Shown: piece after piece, positions 9,801 to 31,494 of the stretch
Numbering within the stretch: the stretch's first letter is position 1
Layout of the letters: the number at the start of each line of letters is the position of its first letter
Virus record (IMG/VR): IMGVR_UViG_3300037483_001810
Location: 1-32,403 of that record
DNA length: 32,403 bases
From: a virus
Lineage: Duplodnaviria > Caudoviricetes
Direction: 5' to 3' (one strand)
The notes under the pieces: model-generated
Database searches by the model: none
The model's input: only the letters and a program-made list of their open reading frames with translations
Told to the model about the DNA's origin: nothing
Position numbers and translations under genes: made by a program

Positions 9801-10477
9801 TAGACGCCTCCGCCCATAACCCAACCGCCTTCACCATGAACATCCAACCAAAGGTGGGCGGGTCGTTCCGCTATCCAAGCGGCATGGGACTGCCAACGAA
9901 GGTCGAGGGTCCGGTCATGAACGTCGTCCGGTCCTGGCGGGGTGATTTCGGTGGCGACAACATGAACAACGTTCCCACCGGGACGAAGCAGTCCGTCGCA
10001 GGCGTCAAGGAAGGTGGGCAGGTCGACGGCGGGGATTCCCTCGACGGCCTGTTCGCTGATGATCCAATCGAACCGTCCCTGCTGACCGGCGCCAGCTGTG
10101 CGTAGCTGAGTGCGGGCGTCAGCGGCGAGAATGTCAATGTCGAGGATCAGTGGGGCAATATCCGGTCGGGCGTTGGTGGCTTTCTCCGCTTGGATCCACG
10201 GTGAAACCTCGGTACCCCAAATACGGTTGTGGTTGAACGTGTCGACGATCGTTTCGATGATCCACCCGAACCCGCAACCAACGACGAGGACCTGGGAGGC
10301 CGGGTTGGCGGCGCCGGGCATGGTGAGACCCCACTGGCGGGCCCGCTCGATCCAAGCTTTCTGTGATCTGTCAGGGCCTAACAGGTTTCGCCGGTAGGAC
10401 GGTTGGCGGATGCCAAGTGACGGGTTCCACCGTTGGTATGCGGCGTCGTAGTCGGCTTGACCCCAAACTGCTGGCAT
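9800..10477 (-). CDS. Class I SAM-dependent methyltransferase
   Basis: Motif I VLVVGCGFG, motif II IWGTEVS, post-II RFDWIISE and LLRPGG. Likely start MPAVW at 10477. Confidence 0.8.
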   Translation of the reverse strand: MPAVWGQADYDAAYQRWNPSLGIRQPSYRRNLLGPDRSQKAWIERARQWGLTMPGAANPASQVLVVGCGFGWIIETIVDTFNHNRIWGTEVSPWIQAEKATNARPDIAPLILDIDILAADARTQLRTAGAGQQGRFDWIISEQAVEGIPAVDLPTFLDACDGLLRPGGNVVHVVATEITPPGPDDVHDRTLDLRWQSHAAWIAERPAHLWLDVHGEGGWVMGGGV

Positions 10478-10497
10478 ACCGCGACCCTTCTCACGTG

Positions 10498-10540
10498 GTG
10501 CTCGGTGTCGGGCCCCAGATAGAAACCCGACACCGAGCAC
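10498..10540. terminator. Intergenic stem-loop (15-bp perfect inverted repeat)
   Basis: GTGCTCGGTGTCGGG / CCCGACACCGAGCAC, 13-nt loop, no U-tract. Terminator, attenuator or mRNA-stabilising hairpin. Confidence 0.55.
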
Positions 10541-16830: not shown

Positions 16831-17288
16831 TTCTTCGAACGCGGGTCACGCCGGGCCCGGGTGATCTCCGTCACCACCGCCAGCCCGGTGCTTTCCTCTG
16901 CCCCGTCGGGAAGTTGCCAACGAAAATCACGGCGACCCTTCTCCGTCAGGCCGAGCCCGTCGCGCAGGATCCGCAGTTCGTTCTGCATCGAGGCGAACCC
17001 GTTGAAGAACTCTCCCGAGTTCAAAGCGCGGGTGACCCGGTCGTAGAGGACCACCAGCTGCTGCAGGGTTGGCCAGTCAGACTCCATCCACATGTGCGCT
17101 ACCGGTGACCGCCACCACAACTCCCAGGCCTTCTTCGTGCTGGCCAAGAGGCCGCCCGAAATGCGGGGCAGATGCGGTCGCGGACCGGCATACGGTTCGG
17201 CCGGCAGGTCAACCCACTCGCCGCGCGTCGGCTTGTTGGACCGGGTCCGAGCGTCCTTCGGTTTCGGCGCAGGGCCACGTCCAGCCAT
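16827..17288 (-). CDS. terS: Terminase small subunit
   Basis: MAGRGPAPKP start, WELWWRSP and ELRILRDGLGLTEKGRRDFRW motifs typical of actinophage TerS. Confidence 0.88.
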   Translation of the reverse strand: MAGRGPAPKPKDARTRSNKPTRGEWVDLPAEPYAGPRPHLPRISGGLLASTKKAWELWWRSPVAHMWMESDWPTLQQLVVLYDRVTRALNSGEFFNGFASMQNELRILRDGLGLTEKGRRDFRWQLPDGAEESTGLAVVTEITRARRDPRSKK

Positions 17289-17413
17289 CAGCAGGAACCT
17301 CCTCAGGCAACCGGGTCTGGGAGATTCGCCCCATTGGCCCCAGACCCGTAGCCACAAAAGATGAGGGACGGAGTCTTCCGGCGACCCCGCCGATACCAGA
17401 AAAACGGCCCCCC
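17289..17413. other. Probable cos / packaging region
   Basis: Non-coding gap between HNH and terS with a G-run and a 10-bp hairpin (17312-17348). This is the usual cos location in HK97-like phages; the exact cut site cannot be identified. Confidence 0.45.
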
Positions 17414-17707
17414 CTACCCCCTGGCTCTATTGCACGACAGGTGAGTGAGGCGGAGGTTGGTGGGGTGGTCTGTGCCACCATCTGCACGGCGGGTCACATG
17501 GTCTAGGGACGGTGACCTAGGGGTCCGACCTCGCAACGCTGTCACCGGCATGTGACAGATCCCACAGACACCTTGATCTCGCTGATAGATGTCAGCGAGC
17601 AGATCTCGAGCCAGGTTGCGGTTCCGACGCCGCACGGGGGGCCCACAACTGGGGCAGCGGCGTCCCCGGGTGGGTCGGCCACATTCAAGACAAGGGCGAC
17701 GAGCCAT
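17414..17707 (-). CDS. Terminase-associated HNH endonuclease
   Basis: RDQGVCGIC, SLDHVTRRADGGTDHPTNLRLTHLSCNRARG and an N-terminal CxxC zinc ribbon; adjacent to terS. Confidence 0.92.
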   Translation of the reverse strand: MARRPCLECGRPTRGRRCPSCGPPVRRRNRNLARDLLADIYQRDQGVCGICHMPVTALRGRTPRSPSLDHVTRRADGGTDHPTNLRLTHLSCNRARG

Positions 17708-17840
17708 GAAACGGTGACCACCTTCCCAGGTTTCTGACGGAAACGGAGAGCGGGGGTGGCTGGACTCGGGACGGACCATGGTCTATCCGGCGAGGGGGAG
17801 GGAGGATACCCGGCTAGCCAAACACACCCCGATGTGGCGT

Positions 17841-18029
17841 CTAGTAGCGGCCGGCCGTCACACCCCGAGTACGAGGAAACCGGACCGGCTGATGTGCCCA
17901 ACACTCCGGACGTTTGTTATACACCGACAGGATCGTTGAGCACTCGAGCTCCGCACAGACCCGGCCAGGATCGAACCGTTTACTCGGTTGCACCGGACGG
18001 AGAACCCGGTGTATTGAAGTCGACGACAT
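17841..18029 (-). CDS. Small Cys/His zinc-finger-like protein
   Basis: GRVCAELECSTILSVYNKRPECWAH (C-x4-C ... C-x2-H); first gene after the putative late promoter. Confidence 0.65.
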   Translation of the reverse strand: MSSTSIHRVLRPVQPSKRFDPGRVCAELECSTILSVYNKRPECWAHQPVRFPRTRGVTAGRY

Positions 18030-18096
18030 AAAGGGAACGTTCACCCGGGTCACCCCCAAAGTTTCCGGCAGAAACTTTCCGCAGACAGCAAAACAC

Positions 18097-18121
18097 TACG
18101 AGGCCCCGGCGGGGCCTCGTA
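18097..18121 (-). terminator. Intrinsic terminator-like hairpin
   Basis: TACGAGGCCCC-GGC-GGGGCCTCGTA (11-bp stem) followed on the minus strand by GTGTTTT. Confidence 0.65.
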
Positions 18122-18152
18122 AGAGAACATTTGTTGTAACCCTAATAACATC

Positions 18153-18182
18153 ACTGTAGTTCACCCCGTCTGGGCATGTCAA
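18153..18182 (-). promoter_or_regulatory. Sigma-70/A-type promoter facing the late operon
   Basis: Minus strand reads TTGACA-N18-TACAGT. Confidence 0.65.
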
Positions 18183-18220
18183 CGACTATGGCAGTGTTGA
18201 CGATTCAGGGAAATGTCCCT

Positions 18221-19156
18221 TTACGTCTTTGGGGGTTCGTCTTCGGGACGGGTGTCAGGGTCGACGACTGGGGTAGCCGTCTCGGGTTTTTCCTGTTCGG
18301 GACGGGTGAGGGTATCACCGAGAAGCTCGGCGGCGGCGGCGGTAGCGGTGCGAACGTTGCGGCCGGCGATGTAACGCAATGTTGTGTCTATTGATCGGTG
18401 ACCTAGCAGTTGTTGGACGTCCTGGACGGGTGCGCCTGCTTCTAGAGCCAGTGTGGCAGCGGTGTGCCGCAGAGTGTGGGGTGTGCATTTTTCGATGTCG
18501 ACCGAGGCGGCGAGTTCGACTATTACTTCCCAGCCGGCCCGTCGTGATAGTGGCCGACCGTCGGAGGTTAGAAGGATGGGCCCATCTTTGCGGTCGCCGA
18601 CTGTGCGCCGTATAGCCTCGAGAACTGGGGGAGACAAAGGTTTCGCTTGACGGTGGCCGCCCTTCACGGTCACTGTCAACACGTCGTCGGTGATGTCCTC
18701 CAGGCGGGCAGTACAGGCCTCTGCGATTCGCAGGCCAATACCCACCATCAACCACACTAGTGCATGCGTAGCAGACGACCGTGTCCGGGCAGCGGCGATC
18801 AACACACGGGCTTGGGTGGCGGTCAGCCCTAACTTCTGTGGTCCTTCCCCTTTGGGCCGTCTCAAAAGATCGGTAGGATCTGAGTCCACAATCCCCTCGG
18901 CGGTGAGATAATCGAACAGTGAACTGACAGCTGACGCTTTTCGCCGCACCGTCGCCTCGGCTAGACCGGTCTCGAGCAGGCCGGCCAGCCAACGCTGCAC
19001 CACCGGTCGTGTCACCGCCAGCAACCCCATATTCTTAATGTCCAGATAGGCGAGGAACTGGGTTATATCAGTGGTATACCCGCGACGGGTACCCGACGGA
19101 TACGCAGCCAGCCAATCGGCTATCAACCCGCGCACCTCATCCATACTGTCACTCAT
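18221..19156 (-). CDS. Second tyrosine recombinase (XerC/D-like, core-binding plus catalytic domains)
   Basis: Complete catalytic set: GLRIAE (R), VKGG (K), PHTLRH (HxxR), LGH and TLRY (Y). SAM-like N-domain (TRRGYTTDITQF, ATVRRKASAVSSLFDYL). No arm-binding domain. Confidence 0.95.
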   Translation of the reverse strand: MSDSMDEVRGLIADWLAAYPSGTRRGYTTDITQFLAYLDIKNMGLLAVTRPVVQRWLAGLLETGLAEATVRRKASAVSSLFDYLTAEGIVDSDPTDLLRRPKGEGPQKLGLTATQARVLIAAARTRSSATHALVWLMVGIGLRIAEACTARLEDITDDVLTVTVKGGHRQAKPLSPPVLEAIRRTVGDRKDGPILLTSDGRPLSRRAGWEVIVELAASVDIEKCTPHTLRHTAATLALEAGAPVQDVQQLLGHRSIDTTLRYIAGRNVRTATAAAAELLGDTLTRPEQEKPETATPVVDPDTRPEDEPPKT

Positions 19157-19245
19157 CGTCGCCTGTCCCGCCACCGAAATCGTCACTGGAGCTACCGTTT
19201 GTCTTCATATTGCCTGCCTTGCGATATGCGGGAAGAAAATGGACG

Positions 19246-19446
19246 TTATGTTCGCGGCGGGGTGTCGAAAGTTTGGGGCTCAACCTCCGGGTCCGCTGGG
19301 CCGTGCTCTCCCAAATGGGCCACCCTGCGCTCACAATGACCAGTCACAACACCAAAGGTCAGACGGTTATCACCAGTACCTATGCTCTTGGAACTCACCT
19401 CATAATGCGCCATACACATCGCATTCGGATCGAACAAATCACTCAT
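19246..19446 (-). CDS. Small hypothetical protein (cassette)
   Basis: 66 aa, starts at the junction motif with a GAGGT RBS. Confidence 0.55.
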   Translation of the reverse strand: MSDLFDPNAMCMAHYEVSSKSIGTGDNRLTFGVVTGHCERRVAHLGEHGPADPEVEPQTFDTPPRT

Positions 19447-19463
19447 CGATTACCTCTTCCGTT

Positions 19464-19832
19464 TCATGCCCTAATCCACCTTCCATCCTTGATGAACCCA
19501 TGGTCACCACAGAGCCTGCAACACAGAGACGGAGAGAGGGTCAAAGGCTCCTCCTGCACTAGATCCCATTTGGGATCGTCGGGGGAAACGCGGTCAGTTA
19601 CAGGAGTTCTTATCGAGGCATAGGCCTGACACGGCTTCCCATCAGAAGTCAAATGACCTACCGAGACTCCTGCATGAGGTTCGTCGGGAATGTTAACGTG
19701 TTGAGGGTTGAGATCCCTATCTGGTGCCCACTGCACCCAGGCATACCAATGATCATTACCGAGATCAACGGCATTGGACGGTAGGTGGTCCCAGTCGTGA
19801 TCTCGAAAGTTCTTCGGGTCGTTGTTACTCAT
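19464..19832 (-). CDS. DUF6527-like protein
   Basis: C-terminal PLTLSPSLCCRLCGDHGFIKDGRW matches the TLxPS...C..H.FI..G.W pattern of DUF6527. Confidence 0.65.
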   Translation of the reverse strand: MSNNDPKNFRDHDWDHLPSNAVDLGNDHWYAWVQWAPDRDLNPQHVNIPDEPHAGVSVGHLTSDGKPCQAYASIRTPVTDRVSPDDPKWDLVQEEPLTLSPSLCCRLCGDHGFIKDGRWIRA

Positions 19833-20019
19833 CGGTTACCTCCTCGAGCCTCATGGCCTTGCCGTCGATCTCTACCGTCCCGCCATCAAGCAGAGCAAAG
19901 AAAGCGTCGATTCCGGTAGCGACGAGTGCCTCGTCGAGTGCCGCTGGACTACCGAGCATTGAGCGCGCTCTCCTCATACGCTCTGAAGATGCGTAGATTC
20001 TCCACGTGGTGTCACTCAT
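19825..20019 (-). CDS. Small hypothetical protein (cassette)
   Basis: MSDTTWRIY...EEVTDE, 64 aa, with the junction motif at both ends. Confidence 0.7.
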   Translation of the reverse strand: MSDTTWRIYASSERMRRARSMLGSPAALDEALVATGIDAFFALLDGGTVEIDGKAMRLEEVTDE

Positions 20020-20269
20020 CGGTAACCTCCAACGCGGCTCGCAATACCGCGGCGACAACCGGAGGCAGATCCCAATCCTCATTAGGGAACCAGGTTTCAA
20101 GCTCGGTGCATCCCCGTTCGATCATCGCCTCATCGACCCTAACCTCCCGGCCACCAGGACACCCAGGTGCCATACACATCCAAAAACCTTGCGGTCCCAA
20201 CCGATACCTCCACCTCAACACATGTCCGCAAGGTTGGCCGTGATCCCGCATACTCAAGATGTCACTCAT
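20012..20269 (-). CDS. Small Cys-containing hypothetical protein (cassette)
   Basis: MSDILSMRDHGQPCGH...CMAPGCPGG...LEVTDE, 85 aa. Confidence 0.7.
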   Translation of the reverse strand: MSDILSMRDHGQPCGHVLRWRYRLGPQGFWMCMAPGCPGGREVRVDEAMIERGCTELETWFPNEDWDLPPVVAAVLRAALEVTDE

Positions 20270-20460
20270 CGGTAACCCCACATCACCGCTGGTTCTGAGG
20301 CACACCACTTACAGAAAAGTGCCAGTGCCTCGCCGCCAACTGTCTCACCGCTCTCCTCCTCATAGACAATGTAAAGAGGAACATGACGACGACACCCATA
20401 ACACCTAACGGGCGACAGAGCAAGGCTTGGGAGAAAATCCTCTCTGGTTGTGTCACTCAT
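20266..20460 (-). CDS. Small zinc-ribbon protein (cassette)
   Basis: MSDTTREDF...CYGC...CKWC, 64 aa. Confidence 0.7.
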   Translation of the reverse strand: MSDTTREDFLPSLALSPVRCYGCRRHVPLYIVYEEESGETVGGEALALFCKWCASEPAVMWGYR

Positions 20461-20700
20461 CGGTGCTCCTCCGGGTAGCGGTCGACGACGATCAGGTAGG
20501 CGTCGGTCATCCGACACGGGACCCCGGCTGTCGCTGCCTGTTCGAGGTAGTACGAGTGCCAGCAGTAGCCGAGCTGGTGGTCGATAGCGCCGGCGTCTTG
20601 TGCTTCATGTTCGAGACACCAGCGGAGAGACAGATCCGTTACCTGTTGGATGAGATCGTTCCTATGGTCGAGCGCTTCTCAAACTCACAACGTCACTCAT
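20457..20700 (-). pseudogene. Frameshifted small cassette gene
   Basis: Strong RBS and ATG at 20700 give MSDVVSLRSARP then a stop. The +1 frame continues EALDHRNDLIQQVTDLSLRWCLEHEAQ...YCWHSYY...PCRMTDAYLIVVDRYPEEHR to a stop coupled to the next ATG. Span is 244 nt (3n+1). Confidence 0.7.
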
Positions 20701-20897
20701 CGGTCACCTCCTTGTTTCCAATCATGTTTGTCACACCACATACGGTTTTTGTTCGCATAACGGGGACACCACACAAACCCTGGAGCCCAAACACACCGTT
20801 CAAATATTGGGGCAGGTTTGATAAACAGTGAGCGAATCTCATATCCGACCCGGTAGCAGGCCAAAAGCAGAATCGGCTGTCTACGGTTCTTTTTCAT
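20697..20897 (-). CDS. Small basic Cys/His protein
   Basis: 66 aa with RCVWAPGFVWCPRY...WCDKH; its stop lies inside the junction motif. Confidence 0.6.
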   Translation of the reverse strand: MKKNRRQPILLLACYRVGYEIRSLFIKPAPIFERCVWAPGFVWCPRYANKNRMWCDKHDWKQGGDR

Positions 20898-20916
20898 GTC
20901 GAACCTTTCCCGGAAG

Positions 20917-21018
20917 TCATCCCCATATCAGCCATCCCAAAACAATCCCAACTCCTACCCCATACGAGGCGAACAAGATCATCACGATAAGCATCGGACT
21001 GCGGTTGTCGTCGGTCAT
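20917..21018 (-). CDS. Tiny single-pass membrane protein (33 aa)
   Basis: AAGGA RBS and ATGA overlap; MTDDNRSPMLIVMILFASYGVGVGIVLGWLIWG. Confidence 0.55.
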   Translation of the reverse strand: MTDDNRSPMLIVMILFASYGVGVGIVLGWLIWG

Positions 21019-21497
21019 TGGGGGTTCCTTTCTGAGAGTGGGTGACCGCACCAGGCGCAGTGACGGGGCCATGAAATGTCAATTGGGTGGTGGCAGTGGC
21101 GGCATAACGATCGTGCTGCTATCTGGGTGCGTAGGTGGATGAATCCGGCTAATGCGTCGGCACGGCGGGCAATGTGGTCGAGTTCTCGGGTGAGGAGGTT
21201 GTGGGCGTAGACGGGGGTTGGGTCAAACGCCCGGTCGGCTGCCGAACCTGACACACGTTCCCGGTCGGGTCGGATGGCCTGGTTCGCGGACGAGAGCAGG
21301 GCCAGTGTGTCGACTCGGTTCAGATATGCGCGTACTGTGGCAGCGGCGGCTGTATCCAGGTTGGCGACAAAACCCAGCTGGTCGCGGAGTTGGGCGATGG
21401 TCCGGTCTTTGGCTTGCAGGGTGTCTACTAGTTCGGCTCGTTGCCGTTGACAGGTGTCTAGTCGGTCATACAGTGACGGTTGCCGTGATTTCGTCAT
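21015..21497 (-). CDS. Hypothetical protein, coiled coil plus C-terminal zinc ribbon
   Basis: 160 aa with CRHC...CAWCG; coupled to its neighbours. Confidence 0.75.
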   Translation of the reverse strand: MTKSRQPSLYDRLDTCQRQRAELVDTLQAKDRTIAQLRDQLGFVANLDTAAAATVRAYLNRVDTLALLSSANQAIRPDRERVSGSAADRAFDPTPVYAHNLLTRELDHIARRADALAGFIHLRTQIAARSLCRHCHHPIDISWPRHCAWCGHPLSERNPQ

Positions 21498-21718
21498 TTT
21501 CCGGCTGTCTCCCCGTCAAAATGGGTGAGGTGAATCCACACATTTTTGTACAGACCCAACGCCTGGCCGGCAACAATTGGACGGTCACACCGCAAGCAGT
21601 AGCCACCATGCCTGGCCCGAAATGTTGCTTCCGGCATTACGTCGATCAAAGGTGGTATCGGTGTGTGCCCGTCACAGAGGACACATGTGCCCGGATCCAT
21701 CAAATGTAAATCACACAT
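21494..21718 (-). CDS. Small zinc-binding protein
   Basis: MCDLHLMDPGTCVLC...FRARHGGYCLRCDRPIVAG...WIH. Confidence 0.7.
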   Translation of the reverse strand: MCDLHLMDPGTCVLCDGHTPIPPLIDVMPEATFRARHGGYCLRCDRPIVAGQALGLYKNVWIHLTHFDGETAGK

Positions 21719-22142
21719 GAGATGTCGACGTTTTTTGGCGGGTCTCACCGACGGTGGGAAGGCTGGAGGCCAGACCGGTGCGTGTGGCATCACAGGCAAC
21801 ACAGATTGCTTCGCGCATTCCGCCTGGCAGATGGAAGATGGCCCAGCGGGGATGATGACAGTAGTTTGGGTCGGTTGGGTCCACCCCCTCAGGCACATTT
21901 GTTCTCGAGTGTGCTTTGGCAGCAGCTAACAGTTCTGATGGGGACGGCGCCGATTTGCGGCCCTGCTCGTACAGTTCGTGGACGGCCCGCCATAACGCCC
22001 GTTCCGGCAACCGTGCAAAGTCGGGGAACAGGGAGGCAACCCGTTCAGCTGAGGCCAGCCAGCGGGTACCCGGCCAGCGGGTATCAATCCACTCCAAAAT
22101 GTCGGCAAACGTGTCCTCAGACAGACGATGCACCAAAGTCAT
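21711..22142 (-). CDS. Putative helicase loader/inhibitor-like protein (G39P / lambda P position)
   Basis: Helical domain ending ALWRAVHELYEQGRKSAPSPSELL, downstream of the replication initiator; C-terminal Cys/His cluster. Confidence 0.5.
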   Translation of the reverse strand: MTLVHRLSEDTFADILEWIDTRWPGTRWLASAERVASLFPDFARLPERALWRAVHELYEQGRKSAPSPSELLAAAKAHSRTNVPEGVDPTDPNYCHHPRWAIFHLPGGMREAICVACDATRTGLASSLPTVGETRQKTSTSHV

Positions 22143-22408
22143 GGTCGGCCACCGGTCAACGTTTCTAACCGGTCGGCTACGTCCGGGCCGAGGAAGGTGG
22201 CAGCCACCCCCCGTAATACAGCCATGGCTGTGTTGGCACTGGTCATCGCATACTGGTCTTTGTCGAACAAAGCTTGGGCGCGGACGTCCAACCAGCCGGC
22301 TGTCCGATCAAACAAATACAGTTCCAACAGGCTGCCGGTCAGTTCAGTGGATGGTTCACCCGCTTCGATACGTCGACGGGTTTCCGCCAGGTCGGTGGCC
22401 GGGTGCAT
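22139..22408 (-). CDS. Hypothetical protein
   Basis: 89 aa, coupled on both sides. Confidence 0.7.
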   Translation of the reverse strand: MHPATDLAETRRRIEAGEPSTELTGSLLELYLFDRTAGWLDVRAQALFDKDQYAMTSANTAMAVLRGVAATFLGPDVADRLETLTGGRP

Positions 22409-23340
22409 CAGCTTGACCCTCGGGCAACCTGACGGATCGCATCACGGCGACGTTGCCGCATGGTGGCCGCCTGAAATTCGTCACGGTCCACATCGGAAAC
22501 GGCTGTCAACGGATTCGATGAATGGAATCGTCGCCAATGCTTCGCCAACGAAGACAATGTCAACTTGCCTACCCCCCACTCGAGCACCAGCCGCTGGGCG
22601 ATCGGGTGTACTTCGTCCGGGTCGATGTCGGCTTCCAACAGCTCAGCCTGAAATCGGCCTTGCAGTTTTGCTTGTGTCGTGGATGGTTCCGATCCGACTG
22701 CTTCGGAAATGGCATTCCACATTCGGTCTCGGTCCAGTTTCGAAATTGGTGGCGGTCGAGATAGATCGACCGTAGGGAGATCTATCTCTCTGGTGGGAGC
22801 GGGAGCGGTCTCTTTAGAAACCGGCCCTGTGGCGCGCGCTGAGGACGTCCCACAGGGCCGGTCTAAACCTGAGGTTGAAACCGGTACTGTGGGACCGGTC
22901 ATAACGTCGGGGGAAACGCCTGGTAGGGGGGGTGTCGGCCCGTCGTTTTGACGTGAATCGTCCAAATTTGGTGTCCCAATTTCTAACCCGGTCCCAGAGG
23001 GCCGGGTAAGGTTTGGGACATCAATTTCTTGGTGATCTTGCCCGCATACACACTCACCGGTGTACCGGTTGGGCACGTGCAACTGATATTCTTGAGCTTC
23101 ACGGCGCCGCCGGCCCAGCACCTCAACAAAACCTAACGCGATGAGCCGATCCAAGTTTTTGCGGACGGCCCGGTCTGAACTCACCGACGTGTACTCGGCC
23201 AGCATGAGCTCCGGTACTTTGGCGTAACCGACGTCGTTGGCCTGATCGGCAAACGCCACCAACAGCAGTTTCAGATGGCCGGGTAGTTGGCGGCCTTCGT
23301 GACGGGCCACCCAAGCGTGTGGTGTGACATGATGACTCAC
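22408..23340 (-). CDS. Phage replication initiator (N-terminal winged HTH)
   Basis: KLLLVAFADQANDVGYA...LAEYTSVSSDRAVRKNLDRLIALGFVE, then a low-complexity linker with DNA repeats and a helical C-domain. Confidence 0.8.
   Translation of the reverse strand: MSHHVTPHAWVARHEGRQLPGHLKLLLVAFADQANDVGYAKVPELMLAEYTSVSSDRAVRKNLDRLIALGFVEVLGRRRREAQEYQLHVPNRYTGECVCGQDHQEIDVPNLTRPSGTGLEIGTPNLDDSRQNDGPTPPLPGVSPDVMTGPTVPVSTSGLDRPCGTSSARATGPVSKETAPAPTREIDLPTVDLSRPPPISKLDRDRMWNAISEAVGSEPSTTQAKLQGRFQAELLEADIDPDEVHPIAQRLVLEWGVGKLTLSSLAKHWRRFHSSNPLTAVSDVDRDEFQAATMRQRRRDAIRQVARGSS
22820..23006. repeat. Iteron-like repeats, probable replication origin
   Basis: ACCGGCCCTGTGG (22820) and CCACAGGGCCGGT (22850) form an inverted pair; related ACCGGTACTGTGGGACCGGT (22880) and CCCGGTCCCAGAGGGCCGGG (22987). 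Confidence 0.55.
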
Positions 23341-23346
23341 AGGTTG

Positions 23347-23721
23347 TTACCCCCGGTAGTAGGCGTGTACGGTTCCGTCGTCGTGGCAGTCGATCGACCA
23401 TTGCACCCGGCCGGCCGTTTTCGGGTGGCAGGGCTGGTCGTCGAGTTCGAGATTGAAAACTCCGTCGCGGAGTAGAACACCCAACAGAATGGCGACCGGG
23501 TCAACTAGCAGACCGGCCTCTACCACTTCACGGATGACTGTCATAGCGGCTGTGATCCTGTCGGAGCGTTTCCGGGCGGTGGTTCGGCCATCCGGCAGTA
23601 CCCGAACTTTGTGACCGTCTACGACGACGTCGTGGGCGCTCTCATGGGAATGGGTAGACCGGAGGGTTTGGACTGTTGCCTCTCCCACCAGTCGGGGATC
23701 ATGATGGGTTTGCCAGGTCAC
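23347..23721 (-). CDS. Hypothetical protein
   Basis: GTG start overlapping the ParB-like gene stop; 124 aa. Confidence 0.65.
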   Translation of the reverse strand: MTWQTHHDPRLVGEATVQTLRSTHSHESAHDVVVDGHKVRVLPDGRTTARKRSDRITAAMTVIREVVEAGLLVDPVAILLGVLLRDGVFNLELDDQPCHPKTAGRVQWSIDCHDDGTVHAYYRG

Positions 23722-25049
23722 AACCCCACCTCCAACTGTTCGGGTTCGGTGAAGCCGCATGCATCGAGGAAGCCGGTATGGTTCACCAGGTCGGCTTCAC
23801 TGCGGCGATGATGTGTGTTCGACTTTTCACCGACCGCCAACACGACAGCCAACGCTGTAGAGGTTGGATCCGCCTCGAACCTCTCTAACAACACTGTGAC
23901 CGGATCAGCCTTGGTGGCCTGTCCGAGCAGGTTCAGCACCGGGGCGGCCAGGAACCGTTCCGAATCGATCAGCAGGCGGATCGCCTGTGAGAACACCTGA
24001 CCGGTCGGCACATCCGCCGGGTTGGTGAGGAGCTTCCGGTAAAAGACGTCCCGCTGTTTCTTTGCTTCCTCGTCGCGCGTCGCCTTTTCAGCCCGTTGCT
24101 GCTGCTGGGCGGCACGGGTTTGCTGTTCGGTCAACCAATCGTCAGCGACCTTCGCCGGTGAGTCACCGTCTGGGTAGTGGCGGGCCGGTGACAGGCAATA
24201 CCAGTTCACCGTGACAGTACGTAGCCCCTGTTCCCACCCGTCAACCACCCGAAACCGGGAACATGGCTCTGACCGGTGGGCGTCACCATCGACCGGAAGA
24301 AAGAAAGGTGAAACCAGTTTGGCAGTGCGGGCCTCATCCAAACCGAGTTCCACAGCACCCGACGTTTCCGCCTCTACAGTAAGCTGTCGTCTCATCGTGG
24401 TGAGGTTGGCTTCCCGCACCCGACTTGAAATCGTCGTCTCAACCTCGTGCGGGTCAGGGTCGTCAGACTCGAGAATGTCGGTGATGTCGGTGAGGAGACC
24501 CGTCTGGTCGATACCGGCCGTATCCAACGCTTTCGCCAGTTGGTAGCCGTCCTCCACCCTCACCGAACCCGACCTCACATGAGACGCCACATCGGCCGGT
24601 AACGCCAACAGGCGAAGGCGTTTCGACACATGCCCTTTCGACCGGGCCACCCGTTCTGCAATGTCCGACTGGGTCCACCCCAGCCGAAGCAGCTCCCCGT
24701 AGCCGGCAGCTTCGTCAACCGGATCCAAATCAGCCCGATGCAAATTCTCGACCAGTTGCGTCGCCCGGGCGTCCTCCTCCAAAACCAGATCAGGACGGAG
24801 AACAGCCGGAATAGTTGTATCGCCGGCGACAATCGCAGCCGCCAACCGTCGGTGACCGGTAACCAATATCCACTCACCTGTACGGTCAGGATGAACCCGA
24901 ACGGTGACCGGTTGCAACACCCCGATCTGACGGATCGATTCCGCCAAATCAGTCAAATCACCCAGACTGGTACGCGGGTTACCCGGATCAGGCCACACCT
25001 TCTCAACCGGCAGCAACGCCGTAGACGGGGCAACATGCCCGGATTTCAT
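23718..25049 (-). CDS. ParB/RepB/Spo0J-family protein
   Basis: PDPGNPR, LAESIRQIGVLQPVTV, LVTGHRRLAAA, LVENLHRADLDPVDEA and HTH TQSDIAERVARSKGHVSKRLRLL. Confidence 0.93.
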   Translation of the reverse strand: MKSGHVAPSTALLPVEKVWPDPGNPRTSLGDLTDLAESIRQIGVLQPVTVRVHPDRTGEWILVTGHRRLAAAIVAGDTTIPAVLRPDLVLEEDARATQLVENLHRADLDPVDEAAGYGELLRLGWTQSDIAERVARSKGHVSKRLRLLALPADVASHVRSGSVRVEDGYQLAKALDTAGIDQTGLLTDITDILESDDPDPHEVETTISSRVREANLTTMRRQLTVEAETSGAVELGLDEARTAKLVSPFFLPVDGDAHRSEPCSRFRVVDGWEQGLRTVTVNWYCLSPARHYPDGDSPAKVADDWLTEQQTRAAQQQQRAEKATRDEEAKKQRDVFYRKLLTNPADVPTGQVFSQAIRLLIDSERFLAAPVLNLLGQATKADPVTVLLERFEADPTSTALAVVLAVGEKSNTHHRRSEADLVNHTGFLDACGFTEPEQLEVGL

Positions 25050-25414
25050 ATGCCACGCTCCGAAATCAGCTTCCACACCAGAGCCGCCGCATCCGTATCT
25101 TCCCGCACCATCTGTTCACCAGCCCGTTGCAGCCGACGCAAATGACGTTCCGATACACCCAACTGGGCGGCCACCACCAACCGTCGAACCTCAAAATGAT
25201 GGCGGGCGACAAAAGCCACCAGCCGGCGGGCCCGGAGCGCGCCGGCTGTCCGCGTCCCATCCGACACAGACTCCTCCGACGTGCCCACCGCCGCAGCAAC
25301 CCGACCGATCAGATCAAGAAAGGCAGGGTCGAGGACAGGAAGGGGAATCCTCGACCCTGCGTGGCAGGAACCGGGCTGCAAAGATCCCGGTGAGGGTCCT
25401 GCCAAAACAGTCAT
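25046..25414 (-). CDS. DnaA domain-IV-like (TrpR-fold) HTH protein
   Basis: VAAAVGTSEESVSDGTRTAGALRARRLVAFVARHHFEVRRLVVAAQLG parallels the DnaA C-terminal DNA-binding domain pattern. Confidence 0.6.
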   Translation of the reverse strand: MTVLAGPSPGSLQPGSCHAGSRIPLPVLDPAFLDLIGRVAAAVGTSEESVSDGTRTAGALRARRLVAFVARHHFEVRRLVVAAQLGVSERHLRRLQRAGEQMVREDTDAAALVWKLISERGI

Positions 25415-25459
25415 ATCAAACGCGTCGCGGACGAGTTCACGACGCCTCCGACAACGCAC

Positions 25460-25675
25460 CTATGCAGTACGGGCACGGTCGGCCCCTTCCTTGTAGAGGG
25501 TCTGGGCGATATCGGGGTTCTGTTGGAGCTCGTCGCGGAGGTCGCACGCTTCTCGCTCAGAGGTTGTTTTCCCAACGATGACCGGGTGGCCGGCCCAGGT
25601 TTCTCGTATCCCGATGAGGAACCATTTGGTGTCGGGGGCGAACGCTTCTTGCTCCTCATACACCGAAACGATCAC
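25460..25675 (-). CDS. Hypothetical protein
   Basis: 71 aa, GTGA-coupled start, plausible composition. Confidence 0.6.
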   Translation of the reverse strand: MIVSVYEEQEAFAPDTKWFLIGIRETWAGHPVIVGKTTSEREACDLRDELQQNPDIAQTLYKEGADRARTA

Positions 25676-25830
25676 GAGGCGGCCACCTTCTTGACCGTCT
25701 GCCGAGTCCGACGGCGCATCACGCGCTCACCGAGCACCTTGCAGATGGCTTCGGGAGCGGGTTGGCGGTCGAATGTTGAGCGCATGCCCTGCCCCGCCAA
25801 GCCAAGCCCTGCCGGGCCCTGCACAGCCTG

Positions 25831-25873
25831 TGGGTGGGGAGACCGCCACTTCCCAGAACGGTCTCCCCACCCA
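25831..25873. terminator. 15-bp perfect inverted repeat in the early operon
   Basis: TGGGTGGGGAGACCG / CGGTCTCCCCACCCA with a 13-nt loop. Confidence 0.5.
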
Positions 25874-25898
25874 ACCCTTGCCGTCGTCCGGTTCATGC

Positions 25899-26180
25899 CT
25901 AGTTTCCGCCAGAAACCGCGCACGGACGACAAACCAAACCCAACACGGTGCGACGAAAAACACCAACCCGGTCGCGGTCACCACAAACCGGGCAACAGGC
26001 CGGGTCTAACAGGTTTTCGGGTGGGGTAGCAGGCGCTGGTGTCGGTACAGGCGGAGGCGGAGAACCTCCATCATCAGCCTGGCCGACCACTCCCACCCCA
26101 CCCGAAACGTTGAACACCCCGAAACGTTGACGACCGAGACTGACCCTGGTCGCTGTGTAACGGTCGAGACGGTACAACAT
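25899..26180 (-). CDS. Hypothetical Pro-rich protein with a C-terminal CxxC pair
   Basis: GGAGG RBS and TAATG coupling; CPVC...CRPC. Confidence 0.6.
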   Translation of the reverse strand: MLYRLDRYTATRVSLGRQRFGVFNVSGGVGVVGQADDGGSPPPPVPTPAPATPPENLLDPACCPVCGDRDRVGVFRRTVLGLVCRPCAVSGGN

Positions 26181-26335
26181 TATGAAACCTCCGTATCAAG
26201 GCGAAGCCAGGCGGTCAACGACAACCAGGCCGGAACAACAAACAACAGAACCGCCGCCAAGTCACCAAACCAGGCGGCCGTGATCAGGAACCCGAACGAC
26301 AAACCAGTCGTAGCGTTGAGGAAACGAGACCACAT
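26180..26335 (-). CDS. Small membrane protein (51 aa)
   Basis: Below the track cutoff: MWSRFLNATTGLSFGFLITAAWFGDLAAVLLFVVPAWLSLTAWLRLDTEVS, coupled at both ends. Confidence 0.7.
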   Translation of the reverse strand: MWSRFLNATTGLSFGFLITAAWFGDLAAVLLFVVPAWLSLTAWLRLDTEVS

Positions 26336-26637
26336 CAGCCGGCACTCCCCTCAACAAGTGACAAAGACGCGGCCGGGCGGCCGGCATCGATCAGACGGGC
26401 AACCTCCGACGGGGAGACCCGCCACTGGCCACGTATCTTCGAACCCAGCAACTCCCCCGACTGGACCATCGACAGAGCCGTGTTGTGATGTACGTTCAAC
26501 GTGTCACACACCTGCGCCAACGTCAGCAGCCGAGACGACTCGGCACCGGCCTCGAGCACATCAGCCTGTGACCGCAACACCTGCGCCTGGGCTTCCAACG
26601 CGGACGCTTGGGTACGAAGGAGTTCAACAGTCGTCAC
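26335..26637 (-). CDS. Excisionase-like HTH_17 DNA-binding protein with an N-terminal coiled coil
   Basis: LLTLAQVCDTLNVHHNTALSMVQSGELLGSKIRGQWRVSPSEV. Confidence 0.85.
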   Translation of the reverse strand: MTTVELLRTQASALEAQAQVLRSQADVLEAGAESSRLLTLAQVCDTLNVHHNTALSMVQSGELLGSKIRGQWRVSPSEVARLIDAGRPAASLSLVEGSAG

Positions 26638-26846
26638 AAGGCCACCTCTGGAGTTGATCCGACAGCCCTCGCCAGCCACTCATCAACAGCCTCGCTTGTG
26701 TATCCGAAGAAACGTCCGGTGTCAGGATTCGTTGCCCAATGCGGACCGCGCCCCTGGGAACGCCAGTTCCGCAGGGTTCCTGGGGAGATTCCGAGCTTCG
26801 AGGCGGCTTCGTCCTCGGACAGGAACGGCTTGTCGGTATCGTGCAT
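26634..26846 (-). CDS. Cro/Xis-like (AlpA/HTH_17-type) regulator
   Basis: FLSEDEAASKLGISPGTLRNWRSQGRGP...YTSEAVDEWL; divergent from the repressor. Confidence 0.88.
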   Translation of the reverse strand: MHDTDKPFLSEDEAASKLGISPGTLRNWRSQGRGPHWATNPDTGRFFGYTSEAVDEWLARAVGSTPEVAL

Positions 26847-26853
26847 AGGCATG

Positions 26854-26882
26854 AACTTACACGCCTGGTCATGCTAGGTCAA
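26854..26882 (-). promoter_or_regulatory. Early lytic promoter (probably leaderless transcript)
   Basis: TTGACC-N17-TAAGTT, then 7 nt to the ATG at 26846. Confidence 0.7.
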
Positions 26883-26984
26883 GCATTGTAAACTACATGA
26901 CTACTTGCATCGTTGTAGTTTGCTAGCAACAGCAAGCAAATACCGGGAGTGACTAGTCAAAAAGGTGAACTACATGTGGCACGC
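26883..26984. promoter_or_regulatory. Candidate operator region
   Basis: AACTACA at 26891 and 26968 and inverted at 26914; palindromes TTGCTAGCAA (26920) and TGACTAGTCA (26950). Confidence 0.5.
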
Positions 26985-27013
26985 TTGCATTGGGCCGCCA
27001 AACCCGTCACCAT
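26985..27013 (+). promoter_or_regulatory. Repressor promoter
   Basis: TTGCAT-N17-CACCAT, 10 nt before the ATG; no Shine-Dalgarno. Confidence 0.5.
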
Positions 27014-27023
27014 GCATCACTAG

Positions 27024-27467
27024 ATGTCACAGTCGTGGACCGAAGCAGCGGCACTATTGAGGCGATGGCGCACACGGAGCGGGCTCACGCAGCCAGCGCT
27101 GGCGGAGCGGCTAGGTGTCTCGGTATCGACAATCGCCCGCATAAGCAGAGCGACTGATGACGATCACCCCAACACAAGACCTGACGTTCTTTTCGGTCTT
27201 GCCAAGTTGATGGACCGAAGCGGCGCAGCCTTCTTGACACACCTCGGGTATGAGGATTTGGCGGCAGACCTGCGTGATGAACTTGGACCGCAGCACATCC
27301 AAGTCGGCACCGTTTCGGAGAGAGAGACCGCTCACAACGTGGACGTAACCGACGACACTGGCCTGTCCGACCAAGTGCGGCATTCACTGTCATACGGTGG
27401 TGCCGAACTCTCCCCCGAAGAGGAAGCCCGAGTACTCGCCTACATCGAGGGAATGCGCTCCCGATGA
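27024..27467 (+). CDS. XRE-family immunity repressor
   Basis: LRRWRTRSGLTQPALAERLGVSVSTIARI HTH; C-terminal ELSPEEEARVLAYIEGMR typical of ImmR-like repressors. Confidence 0.9.
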   Translation: MSQSWTEAAALLRRWRTRSGLTQPALAERLGVSVSTIARISRATDDDHPNTRPDVLFGLAKLMDRSGAAFLTHLGYEDLAADLRDELGPQHIQVGTVSERETAHNVDVTDDTGLSDQVRHSLSYGGAELSPEEEARVLAYIEGMRSR

Positions 27468-27696
27468 CTCGGCAACGATCGCGCACAAGAGATGACCCCC
27501 CAGCCGGGAGTTCGTCAAATCGACGGATGAAACCGCCGACGAAGTACGCACACGGAGATTCCAGCGTGTCTGAAAAGGGTGGACACGGATGCCAAGTTCC
27601 GATAGAATTCGCGGTGCAAGAGCGGCTAACACCCGTTGAGGGTCAGGGACCGGTGAGGTCTGAGAGCCGCTCTTTGCGCGTCCATGGCAATCCGCG

Positions 27697-28620
27697 ATGA
27701 CTTCCCGCCGCACAGAGGTTGTCGCTGCCGCTCCAAGATCAGTTCTACGAGCCGCAGTGTTCGTGGACTTCTGGAACCTCATCGAGAACCTTCGACGATC
27801 CCTCGGTGATCGGTCTACCGAATTCGATTGGGACGAGCTACCGGTCGCCTTGCTCGAAGTGGGAAGCAAGATTCTCAGCACTCGCCAAGTAGGAGTGTCC
27901 CTCGACCTTCACGGCGTCTACGTGTACGGCGCACCCAGATCGTCGGGCCCCTTCACCACAAACTGGTTCCGCAACAACCTCAAGACGAAGCCGGGATTCC
28001 TGGTGACCGTGCTTGACCGCAAGCCAGACCCACACAAATGTCGGAAATGCAGAACCAGAAACGTGGTTAACCGAGAGAAGGGTGCCGACGCCTCGCTGAT
28101 CTCAGACCTGATGTGGCTCGCCTGGCAAGACCGATACGACGTTGCATTTCTGATATCAGCCGACTCGGACATGATCCCAACTATTGAGCGGGTACAGATC
28201 TCGGGCAGAAGAGTCATTGCCGTGACCCCCGAAGCGAACCGAGAGCTCACCTCAGCCTGCTTCGCTCGGATAGCCATCGAGGACATGTTCATGGGCTCGT
28301 TTCACCGCTTCTTCCCCGGACTTGATGAAGGACCGGGCTACTCGAGAATGGAGGATCACCGCAGTCGGCTTCTGAGAGGAGAAAAGCGATACGACATAGA
28401 GGTCGAGTGGGCGCGAAATGACCCCACCTCCATCGATGGAATGATCAGTTGGCATCTCAGCCAGCTATTAGGAGAACCGGACCGTCAGGCTGAACTTGCG
28501 GCAGAGCTCGGATTCGAGCGTGTCCAAGGGAACCGGTTTATTCGTATTGCGGAGACCGAGGGACCTTCAGTCGACGATCTCGTTCGATTACAGCGCCAGA
28601 CCGGGCGACGGCCAGAATGA
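27697..28620 (+). CDS. NYN (LabA/DUF88, PIN-like) domain nuclease with a C-terminal extension
   Basis: VFVDFWN, REKGADASL, YDVAFLISADSDMIP and GRRV motifs; CRKC insert. Confidence 0.9.
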   Translation: MTSRRTEVVAAAPRSVLRAAVFVDFWNLIENLRRSLGDRSTEFDWDELPVALLEVGSKILSTRQVGVSLDLHGVYVYGAPRSSGPFTTNWFRNNLKTKPGFLVTVLDRKPDPHKCRKCRTRNVVNREKGADASLISDLMWLAWQDRYDVAFLISADSDMIPTIERVQISGRRVIAVTPEANRELTSACFARIAIEDMFMGSFHRFFPGLDEGPGYSRMEDHRSRLLRGEKRYDIEVEWARNDPTSIDGMISWHLSQLLGEPDRQAELAAELGFERVQGNRFIRIAETEGPSVDDLVRLQRQTGRRPE

Positions 28621-28684
28621 CTTCTTTTCGCGGTCTGCCCAGATCCGGCGGATTGTGTCCCGCCTGGTACGTAAGTTGCCACAC

Positions 28685-29116
28685 ATGGGGAAGTGGAATC
28701 CATGGACACACGCCAACGATCAGCATCCGAACGTCGACGTCTACACCACACCCTGCTCCGTCCCGGGCCTCTACTTCCCCGACGAACACGCCATCATCAT
28801 CGCGGAGGGGCAGAGCCGGATCATGCGTCGATCCGTGCTCGCCGAAGAGCTCGCCCACCTCGAGCTTGGTCACCGACCCCACTCCAACCGCATCGAAACG
28901 GAACGGATGGAACTACGGGCACGCAGGTGGGCCGCCCTACGTCTCATCACCCTCGACGAGCTCGCCGACGCCATCGTCGGGACCGCATCCTGGTTTGAAG
29001 TTGCCGAGTATCTGGATGTTGACGAATCGTTGTTGAGGCAACGGTTGGGAGACCTGACCGTATCCGAAAGGGGAACGTTGTGGAAGAAGATCGGACGGAA
29101 AGAGCTGGGACTGTGA
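28685..29116 (+). CDS. ImmA/IrrE-family metallopeptidase (anti-repressor)
   Basis: RRSVLAEELAHLELGH...ELRARRWAALRLI...VAEYLDVDESLLRQRL; TAAGTT -10 element 7 nt before the ATG. Confidence 0.85.
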   Translation: MGKWNPWTHANDQHPNVDVYTTPCSVPGLYFPDEHAIIIAEGQSRIMRRSVLAEELAHLELGHRPHSNRIETERMELRARRWAALRLITLDELADAIVGTASWFEVAEYLDVDESLLRQRLGDLTVSERGTLWKKIGRKELGL

Positions 29117-29475
29117 TCCCACAGCAACAGAAGATCGTTGTCGGAACCGGAGCTGTCCTCATGGTTTTAGGGAGTTTCATGCCGTGGGCGACAGCAGGGA
29201 TTTTCAGTGTTGCCGGGACGGACGGTGACGGAGTGATCACTCTCGTTCTTGGCGTTCTGATCGGAGCTTCGATGCTTCAGAAGGTGGCCAACTTGCGGGT
29301 GGTAGGGATGGCTGTTGTTCTGGTGAGTGCGGTCTGTGGTTTGATTGTGATCTCTGACGGCATGGACCTTGGAGATGCTGCAGGAATGGGGATATTCGTA
29401 GTTGGGGTGGGGGCGATTGTCGCAGCGTTCGGTGGCATTCAGATAGTCAAAGAGTCGATAGTCAAACGTCCATGA
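29113..29475 (+). CDS. Four-helix membrane protein (possible superinfection exclusion)
   Basis: LGSFMPWAT...GTDGDGVITLVLG with four hydrophobic segments; located in the lysogeny operon. Confidence 0.75.
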   Translation: MIPQQQKIVVGTGAVLMVLGSFMPWATAGIFSVAGTDGDGVITLVLGVLIGASMLQKVANLRVVGMAVVLVSAVCGLIVISDGMDLGDAAGMGIFVVGVGAIVAAFGGIQIVKESIVKRP

Positions 29476-30626
29476 GCGGCTACATTCGCCCGGTCGGGTC
29501 GGACCGTTGGCAGGTGATGTTTGATGTGTCCCCGGATCCGGTCACAGGCCGGCGGCGGCGCCGGTCGCGGACCATCAGTGGTACCCGTGACGACGCGGTC
29601 GCAGAGCTTGCCCGCATCCAACAAGAACTCTCCGACGGGCTGTGGATCGACGACGGGACCATGCGCCTCACCGACTTCACCGAACTCTTCATCGACGCCC
29701 GCCGGCGTCGGTGGCGGCCAACCACCGAATCCTGGTATCGGCAGAAACTCGCCTACGCCACCAAAGTGATGGGACATCGGAAACTGTCCCAAATCACCGG
29801 CGGATCGTTAACCGTCTTCTACGGACGGCTCCTCGACCGGGGTCTCTCCCCCACCACCGTGCAACACGTCCACAGGGCACTACGGGCAATGTTCCGCGCT
29901 GCAGTGAAATGGGGATACCTCAAAACTGACCCGTCCGAACGGGCCGAACCCCCAACAACCCAAAGACCAAGAATGCAAACCTGGACTGCCGGGCAGCTCG
30001 CCCTGTTCCTCGAGGAGGTTTCCGGGCATCGTTTCGGTATCGCCTACCTGATCGCTGCGATGACCGGGATGCGACGCGGAGAGGTAGCCGGCCTGCGCTG
30101 GACGGACATCGCCGACGACTACACGACGATGACGATCACCCAAACCATCACCGTCGTCAACGGCCGCACCCACGTCGGACCACCCAAGACTGGGGCGGGG
30201 ATCCGGCGGATCGCTTTGGACGAAACCACCGGACGTCTACTGCGAGCTCACCGCGTCACGCAACGGGAAACCTGGCTAGCCATGGACGGAAACTTTGAAG
30301 ACCTCGACCATGTCGTCGCCTGGCCTGACGGGAGACCAGTCCACCCCGACCTCATCTCCAAAGCCTTCCGGAAACTCGTCGACACACTCGAACTACCAGC
30401 CATCCGACTCCATGACCTCAGACACACCTACGCCACACTGGCGATGGAATTGGGCGTCAACGTCGTTGTCATATCCGAACGACTCGGACACGCATCACCA
30501 GCAATCACCACCAACCTCTACACCCACGTCCGAGACCACATGGACCGAGACGCCGCAGAGGCCATCGCGGATGCGGTACGTCGGCCGCGAGAACAGCCAG
30601 AAGGTCGGCTGCTACACGGCGACTAG
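29472..30626 (+). CDS. int: Prophage integrase (tyrosine recombinase with arm-binding domain)
   Basis: N-terminal arm-binding beta domain (GYIRPVGSDRWQV...DPVTGRRRRRSRT), TGMRRGEVAGLRW, PPKT, RLHDLRHTYAT, RLGH and TNLYTH motifs. Confidence 0.97.
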   Translation: MSGYIRPVGSDRWQVMFDVSPDPVTGRRRRRSRTISGTRDDAVAELARIQQELSDGLWIDDGTMRLTDFTELFIDARRRRWRPTTESWYRQKLAYATKVMGHRKLSQITGGSLTVFYGRLLDRGLSPTTVQHVHRALRAMFRAAVKWGYLKTDPSERAEPPTTQRPRMQTWTAGQLALFLEEVSGHRFGIAYLIAAMTGMRRGEVAGLRWTDIADDYTTMTITQTITVVNGRTHVGPPKTGAGIRRIALDETTGRLLRAHRVTQRETWLAMDGNFEDLDHVVAWPDGRPVHPDLISKAFRKLVDTLELPAIRLHDLRHTYATLAMELGVNVVVISERLGHASPAITTNLYTHVRDHMDRDAAEAIADAVRRPREQPEGRLLHGD

Positions 30627-30986
30627 ATCAGTGTGGCGGAGGGTTGTCGGTTCCGCCTTGGTCCACTCACCGTGGGGGCCTTCGTGATCGAAGCCAGGGA
30701 AGGCGTCATCAAGGGTGGGCCAGTCAGGAGTGCAACCACCCGCAGCATGGATGGCACTGCGGATTGCACCGAGTCCCACCTCGAGGGCGGCACCCTCGGT
30801 GTCACCACCGGCTACCAGTTCGATTGTCACTAACCCAGTCTTCAGGTCGGCGGAAATGGTTTCGTCGTGGACATCGAGATGACCAAGATGGTCGAGTACT
30901 TCGTACACGTGCTCCTCGAGTGACCGCTCATCGAGTTCGTTTTGTCCGACCACGGTGAATGGTACTTCGATGTGTAGCCAGATCAC
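30612..30986 (-). CDS. Acidic partner protein, putative HicB-like antitoxin
   Basis: Coupled (GTGA) to the HicA-like gene; acidic; VTIELVAGGDTEGAALEVGLGAIRSAI resembles the HicB N-terminal fold. Confidence 0.55.
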   Translation of the reverse strand: MIWLHIEVPFTVVGQNELDERSLEEHVYEVLDHLGHLDVHDETISADLKTGLVTIELVAGGDTEGAALEVGLGAIRSAIHAAGGCTPDWPTLDDAFPGFDHEGPHGEWTKAEPTTLRHTDLVAV

Positions 30987-31201
30987 GCGCCCTCCTCCTT
31001 GCATGCCCGGTCAGCCCAGGATATCAAGTTCTTGACGTAGTTGGGATCCGATGGACTCATGTGAACCGATCTTATGTGTGCCCCACAGGGACAGTATCCG
31101 CGGAAGTACTTGGCTCCTTTGCGCCGCTCGAATCGCCATCCGGATCCCTCAAGGTTCCGCATTGCGTCTTCTATGTCCTTTTTCGGATGTTTGGGGCGCA
31201 C
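30983..31201 (-). CDS. HicA-like small basic protein (putative toxin)
   Basis: KDIEDAMRNLEGSGWRFERRKGAKYFRGYCPCGAHIRSVHMSPSD: a HicA-like alpha-beta-beta-beta-alpha pattern. Confidence 0.6.
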   Translation of the reverse strand: MRPKHPKKDIEDAMRNLEGSGWRFERRKGAKYFRGYCPCGAHIRSVHMSPSDPNYVKNLISWADRACKEEGA

Positions 31202-31350
31202 TACTTGAGTGACATTATCAGCCCGGCCGCGCGACGGGTCCGCGACGTTCCCAGCGCCGATGGGGTCATGTGGCACCTGGTTGACAGGTGGGGACCGCGC
31301 GAAACCCCTGGTAGGAGTCATGTGGGCCGATACGGGTACCTGATCGTAAG

Positions 31351-31394: not shown

Positions 31395-31456
31395 TGAGCG
31401 AAGTGCCTGGTCAGCGTAGGTTTTTCGACCTCTCGTGAGACAGCTCCACAACCTCC

Positions 31457-31484: not shown

Positions 31485-31494
31485 CAGAGTGGAC

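Follow-up and report, generated by a model that had tools for sequence, protein, structure and literature searches.

It is an old question whether the mosaicism of phage genomes arises through short shared boundary sequences or through joints made at random and then sifted by selection, and it is raised by a run of small genes in a virus sequence of 32,403 nucleotides (Duplodnaviria; Caudoviricetes; IMG/VR record IMGVR_UViG_3300037483_001810, positions 1 to 32,403), hereafter referred to as the window. One 20-base sequence, which combines a ribosome-binding site with a stop/start signal, recurs on its minus strand as the joint between six very small accessory genes and a gene for a recombinase. 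The initial annotation of this array described it as an integron-like, plug-and-play cassette system, driven by the adjacent recombinase or by microhomology recombination. The feature is real and its cassette-like behaviour is supported, but an integron-like mechanism is not. The motif is probably a gene-junction linker, whose short stretch of homology would let ordinary recombination exchange, insert or remove accessory genes one at a time between phages. The linker or boundary concept for temperate phages goes back to the modular theory of Susskind and Botstein, as described in PMC2839356. Short conserved boundary sequences, including the Island3 gene 67/68 case, are discussed in PMC3029335, according to which they are not findable at most boundaries, and homology traces at mosaic edges are described in PMC2327257.

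The junction repeat and its confinement to the array

All seven motif copies were recovered on the minus strand at the gene starts originally listed for them, with spacings of 240, 191, 250, 187, 386 and 290 bp, in keeping with the unit sizes of about 190-390 bp given at that time. A search with the 13-base core ACCGATGAGTGAC, allowing up to two mismatches, returned 8 matches against 1.39 expected, a number reached in none of 100 shuffles; seven of these lie inside the array and the remaining one within a structural gene. The pattern ATGA[GA]T[GA]A occurs seven times in the window, every time in the array, and all seven copies are invariant at positions -2 to +5 and +7 relative to the A of ATG. 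Around the start codon, the array junctions agree on average at 13.7 of 22 positions in pairwise comparison, as against 8.5 for 23 other starts chosen by the analyst and 8.8 for the 18 of these with an NTGA overlap; none of 20,000 random subsets of seven starts reaches the mean of the array. The motif is absent from all the 23 other gene starts compared in the prophage and is therefore not the generic look of a coupled start in this phage. The initial annotation likewise did not see the full motif at other junctions in the prophage.

Perfect identity between the copies in the window extends over 8-18 bp (median 10), and copy 7, at the recombinase start, has lost the Shine-Dalgarno half. Arms of 5 bp surround the invariant 6-bp centre in a pseudo-symmetric arrangement, with four of the five arm positions matching in four of the seven copies; the symmetry fades past 5 bp and, by a rough estimate, is likely due to chance once the freedom in choosing centre and spacer is allowed for. 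Folding of 61-nt windows over all seven copies was no better than that of shuffles, and no hairpin was found at the motif on either strand (z -0.78 to +1.75, 11 folds). A pattern search within 17700-21600 found no sigma-70-like promoter upstream on the array strand. An integron would have a Pc promoter and an attI site there, the latter a site with no consensus to search by. The proposal that the motif automatically couples the translation of any inserted gene holds for two of the three frames and for five of the seven junctions, three of which are coupled through the -4 ATGA stop and two through the -8 stop; it fails at 19446 and 19156, where the preceding cassette ends 18 and 90 nt earlier, respectively. 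The third frame is closed in only three of the seven copies. Because both stop frames are in use, the conservation of the motif acts at the DNA level.

Shared blocks and junction repeats in other phages

Viral contigs were scanned with the exact motif (27 loci) and with a looser form (119 of about 230 loci). Nearly all the loci hold single copies; 39 of 149 motif loci carried less flanking DNA. The contig richest in copies, L024 (identical to L029), is a fragment estimated at 15% completeness that has five to six copies in the corresponding place, followed by a small Cys-rich gene, HNH, terS and terL. It represents a distant phage (amino-acid identity 25% for terL and 38% for terS), and BLASTP of the coiled-coil gene located upstream of the array gave no significant match to the gene in the equivalent place there. 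The sole DNA match to it over 17.4-22.2 kb of the window is a block of 208 bp with 82% identity (window 20031-19824), which starts at the Shine-Dalgarno sequence of copy 4, stops where copy 5 ends and so comprises unit 4 with both its junctions, while the flanking genes are unrelated on both sides. The N-terminal half of unit 3 has 44% identity to a separate 52-amino-acid gene of L024, located two places upstream there, and its C-terminal half is similar to the end of another L024 gene (alignment only). At 879-906 of L024, two junction copies 27 bp apart enclose a near-empty unit of 7 residues.

Following the unit 4 gene led to four loci beyond the window and L024 (L030, L150, L152 and L153), giving six phages in total. 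L152 (38,096 bases) and L153 (59,000 bases) share a 202-bp block with 88% identity, extending from the tail of the upstream gene to the same tail sequence of the unit 4 gene; besides this block, only two matches of 32-34 bp were found between them. In five of the six phages the gene is flanked on both sides by direct repeats, and these are of three different sequences, namely the motif in the window and L024, a 34-bp repeat (94%) in L030 and a repeat of up to 40 bp in L152 and L153. Because the same gene is flanked by three different repeat sequences, the junction is a shared sequence specific to each lineage, as opposed to a fixed site for an enzyme. Upstream junctions resemble the downstream junction of their own lineage (8 of 720 permutations; 1 of 24 after collapse to four lineages), and junction likeness is higher within than between six arrays (1 of 5000 shuffles, for hand-picked junctions and arrays that are not independent). 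Mosaic breakpoints coincide with the junction repeat in both of the close pairs found, which concern one gene family. The repeat is thus specific to the array, differs in sequence between lineages and bounds the shared blocks of two pairs; array content differs among relatives, and the DNA that they share stops at the motif.

A search with terL as bait (closest relative 61%) gave 80 loci, of which 54 had less than 3 kb upstream and were left out; the remaining 26 were examined with a conservative repeat filter, by which one pair was found in the window itself. One locus selected in this way, and not by the motif, is L276, where three consecutive genes at 3300-3900 end in a DSEAGT tail within a 26-bp repeat (96-100%), a fourth type of junction. 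Neither motif-to-motif joints nor circles or deletions were seen in the contigs of sequencing runs X1 and X2, but contigs drop rare variants and are uninformative on circles. One short X2 contig fits 20009-20044 only, with loose ends on both sides, and gives a weak hint that the same junction may occur with other neighbours.

Explanations for the exchange of single genes

As a linker, the motif would recombine by a crossover inside the repeat, made by host RecA, by a phage single-strand annealing protein or by replication slippage. Such a crossover would leave both genes whole, so that the upstream gene would find a stop in two of its three frames and the downstream gene would receive a ribosome site; recombinants would be viable because the genes are kept intact and the downstream gene is translated. 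Every exchange would copy the local junction onto both sides of the incoming gene, and repeated exchange would homogenise the junctions, so that arrays would drift to a lineage-specific junction sequence. The cassette reading of the initial annotation is consistent with this as far as the differing content, the ending of shared DNA at the motif and the microhomology alternative are concerned. G005 encodes ERF, and the complete array-bearing phage G007 (the same as L153) encodes an AAA_24 protein, which we take to be Sak4-type. As with the boundary sequences described in PMC2839356 and PMC3029335, a short sequence is shared at gene ends by several boundaries beyond chance, genes are gained or lost between direct repeats of gene tails and general recombination is proposed. 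The present repeat differs from those described in being about 20 bp long (Island3, about 50 bp), in occupying seven consecutive junctions, in reaching into the opening codons of the following gene and in having lineage-specific versions around one gene family. The PeSL cassettes of the T4-type phages RB49 and phi1 likewise have an expression signal that recurs between small ORFans, in a region that is plastic, and exchange at the repeat, with no dedicated recombinase identified in the account given in PMC2839356. That repeat, however, is an intergenic promoter with a stem-loop, for which mini-circles were demonstrated, whereas the array motif is an unstructured translation signal that overlaps both genes and has neither promoter nor hairpin at its copies. 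A literature search, which took in few subscription papers and no supplements, turned up nothing published on this motif, nor on junction repeats that are lineage-specific and surround a single gene family.

Several observations weigh against the linker explanation. The exchange rate is probably low, because the perfect identity of 8-18 bp falls below the published minimal recombination segments (23-27 bp for Red-beta and 31-34 bp for RecA; PMC3945230) and because family scans identified no annealing protein among the 58 open reading frames (ORFs) of the window. Selection alone would also place breakpoints at gene ends. The case for exchange is built on two pairs and one gene family, other units having yielded no comparable pair, and L024, a member of one of these pairs, was found via the motif. 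Strong arrays are rare, with four or more copies within 2 kb in one contig among the 149 loci and a motif array in none of the 26 terL-selected regions. No repeat flanks the unit 4 gene of L150, four phages have their unit 5 homologues outside such arrays, and the upstream 30 nt of the window taken alone score 9, as does the best of the 23 control starts.

It is conceivable, though unlikely, that there is no preferred crossover at all, that genes are joined illegitimately with only gene-end joints surviving, and that the junctions resemble one another by convergence on a strong Shine-Dalgarno sequence with a stop/start overlap suited to termination-reinitiation. ATGA overlaps preceded by a Shine-Dalgarno sequence are common and couple translation (PMC6728339), the exact 18-base word is found singly in 27 unrelated viral loci, often at structural genes, and units 5 and 6 end outside the motif; but 18 other NTGA-overlap starts in the same prophage lack it, and convergence would not produce lineage-specific repeats of 26-40 bp that extend well upstream of the Shine-Dalgarno sequence. 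Less probable still is a primarily regulatory role, in which a phage or host factor would co-regulate translation of the array and use as a joint would be secondary. In its uniform orientation, restriction to starts of non-structural genes and inclusion of a Shine-Dalgarno sequence, the motif is like the start-associated sequence (SAS) of the cluster K mycobacteriophages, an asymmetric repeat directly ahead of the ATG in actinobacterial temperate phages (PMC3203893); moreover, across unrelated genes nine of its positions vary little or not at all, and the motif also occurs in the distant L024. The SAS as described there is, however, a 13-bp consensus that precedes starts by 3-7 bp throughout the right arm and for which a regulatory role was proposed, whereas the array consensus is different, spans the ATG and is present at 7 starts of one gene run. 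This run of 1.6 kb does not spread across the early region, orthologous genes bear different junctions in other phages, and no binding factor was identified.

Excision and insertion of cassettes at the motif by the adjacent XerC-like recombinase, as the initial annotation envisaged, is very improbable. The array shares with integrons and with attC clusters that have no integron-integrase (CALINs; PMC4889954) the co-oriented single-gene units, the repeated site and an adjoining tyrosine recombinase. The enzyme holds all the catalytic residues (R143, K165, H227, R230, H253 and Y262, none of which varies among 44 aligned relatives), a separate integrase of the prophage (Table 1) accounts for integration without it, and the pseudo-symmetric arms around the invariant centre might be read as a recombination site. 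Against this, the enzyme is not IntI, scoring 127-129 bits with the XerD and XerC models and 60 bits with the integron integrase model TIGR02249 (cut-off 265), while its best PDB matches are XerC-like, XerA and XerD structures (114-117 bits, as against 73 for IntI4). Its K165 and H227 are 62 residues apart; the IntI family is described as having an insert of about 35 residues near patch III, and attC sites as palindromic hairpins with R and L boxes and a terminal structure of 20-100 nt (PMC4889954). The array, by contrast, lacks IntI, the attC fold and the R and L boxes, its site is far shorter and overlaps coding sequence, and the co-oriented genes of the array end with the recombinase. The flanking repeat also changes between lineages, and even the 6-bp centre takes five forms among six L024 copies. 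Tyrosine recombinases normally require longer arms and identical centres.

Arrays moreover occur without the enzyme, which speaks against the suggestion that they are driven by it. No recombinase gene lies between the array and HNH in the L024 fragment, and the recombinase profile matches nothing in G007, PF00589 also not being found in the 52 scanned of its 61 long ORFs. Conversely, members of the recombinase subfamily in L154 (132-1046) and L155 (116-955) lie just upstream of HNH, terS and terL and start without the motif, on contigs that miss the upstream DNA. The subfamily comprises about 45 proteins with 41-79% identity, none of them in the 26 terL-selected regions; the single protein as bait retrieved one distant locus and the profile 3 of 80 loci at subfamily level, two of them at contig ends, while cultured-phage matches are integrases at 31-34%. 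The XerC-like gene probably rides along as a passenger of this region, closing the same operon, and would have a target of its own. That its subfamily recombines the pseudo-symmetric junction, the centre of which contains the start codon, as a minimal phage-borne integron analogue with a translation signal for a site and with junction 'dialects' setting the accessible gene pools, anti-defence genes such as one for a BubE-like deconjugase included, is a very long shot; that such dialects define accessible gene pools without an enzyme is likelier, albeit doubtful.

Cargo genes and prophage setting

Table 1. Coordinates of the junction copies, array genes and other features in the window
Feature	Position	Strand	Remarks
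Junction copy 1	20692..20711	-	0 mismatches to 20-base consensus
Junction copy 2	20452..20471	-	motif match
Junction copy 3	20261..20280	-	motif match
Junction copy 4	20011..20030	-	0 mismatches; upstream end of L024-shared block
Junction copy 5	19824..19843	-	downstream end of L024-shared block
Junction copy 6	19438..19457	-	3 mismatches; unit 5 does not overlap it
Junction copy 7	19148..19167	-	6 mismatches; conserved in 3' half only
Unit 0	20697..20897	-	66-amino-acid Cys-containing ORF ending in first junction (-4 frame)
Unit 1	20457..20700	-	frameshifted gene; 12-codon ORF from motif ATG
Unit 2	20266..20460	-	64 amino acids; two CxxC motifs; no family match
Unit 3	20012..20269	-	85 amino acids
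Unit 4	19825..20019	-	64 amino acids; unnamed family; gene common to dissimilar phages
Unit 5	19464..19832	-	122 amino acids; DUF6527 (BubE-like); stops 18 nt before next start
Unit 6	19246..19446	-	66 amino acids; Cys/His motif; no family match
Recombinase	18221..19156	-	XerC/D-like tyrosine recombinase, 311 amino acids; second of prophage
Promoter-like site (10/12) and terminator-like hairpin	18096..18182	-	before HNH-terS-terL; pattern match only
Prophage integrase	29472..30626	+	beside immunity module; family scans

The units were initially described as mostly Cys-rich, with two ending in EVTDE. The latter are units 3 and 4; five units have 2-4 Cys, while unit 4 has none. Units 0-4 and 6 have no Pfam, PHROG or PADLOC family match, PADLOC also gave no match for unit 5, and matches to the array DNA, unit 3 or unit 5 were found in no cultured phage. 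The region of unit 0 has an alternative ORF of 49 amino acids that ends in the -8 frame. Unit 1 is frameshifted, because the frame of the motif ATG comprises 12 codons and the conserved product lies in a different open frame (20678-20457; homologues P0027, 80%, and P0028, 69%, one of them a 74-amino-acid protein that begins MSD). Contigs of run X1 agree with the frameshift, X1 being possibly the source of the window and so not independent. Part of unit 1 (window 20500-20636) recurs in diverged form on an X1 contig of about sevenfold greater depth, so the gene is also present in another, more abundant genome. The unit 4 family gave 26 protein matches, that of the window included, and no match in Atlas.

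Unit 5 scores 24.5 bits against PF20137 (DUF6527), just above the cut-off of 23.6, and has 764 relatives. Its Ser102 and His111 are kept in at least 90% of 40 aligned homologues, and the Ser-His spacing is 9 residues, compared with 10 in the BubE of Citrobacter. BubE, a DUF6527 protein, is described as a Ser-His protease that removes ubiquitin-like conjugates (10.1101/2024.11.21.623953), and unit 5 is a candidate BubE-like protease. It stands alone, no E1, E2 or ubiquitin-like protein having been found among the 58 scanned ORFs; a counter-defence role is purely hypothetical. Stand-alone DUF6527/BubE-like proteins appear to be common in phages, and at four viral loci they are found among late or tail genes.

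The window covers one end of a prophage of the lambdoid type (a provirus by classification, 47% complete), and its DNA is carried by sequencing runs from sediment metagenomes, with no RNA run listed among them. Family scans of the 58 ORFs placed the integrase, a repressor, excisionase-like genes, ParB and a replication initiator upstream of the array; downstream lie the recombinase, the promoter-like site and terminator, HNH, terS, terL, portal, protease, capsid and tail genes. This places the array in an accessory stretch between the replication genes and the packaging and late genes, the end of that stretch being marked, by pattern match only, by the promoter-like/terminator-like site. The host may belong to the Acidimicrobiia, going by the source labels of the two closest labelled recombinase relatives (79% and 49%). 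An Rfam scan of 17000-32403 gave no match. By eye, 31350-31392 resembles the 3' half of a tRNA-Lys from the anticodon loop on and is probably a remnant of the prophage attachment site; ARAGORN found no whole tRNA there. Between the integrase and this site lies a HicA-like gene (PADLOC PDC-M06A / HicA-like) with a likely partner (30612-31207, minus strand). The immunity region encodes an NYN-domain protein matching PADLOC HEC-09 (27697-28620, plus strand; E 4e-16), a candidate prophage defence gene, and an inverted repeat of 24 bp within the replication initiator gene (22847-22895) is a likely origin element. Among the head-tail genes (6843-10540, minus strand) are a methyltransferase gene and a gene for a 993-amino-acid protein with a 22-residue (66-bp) repeat, for which no family match was found.

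With one gene of 64 amino acids, six phages, three flanking repeats and two pairs in which sharing ends at the repeats, the locus offers a compact test case for the question of how phage mosaics are joined. It also indicates that a recombinase adjoining an array of motifs need not be the motor of that array, and its stand-alone BubE-like gene is a candidate for acting against ubiquitin-like conjugation systems.

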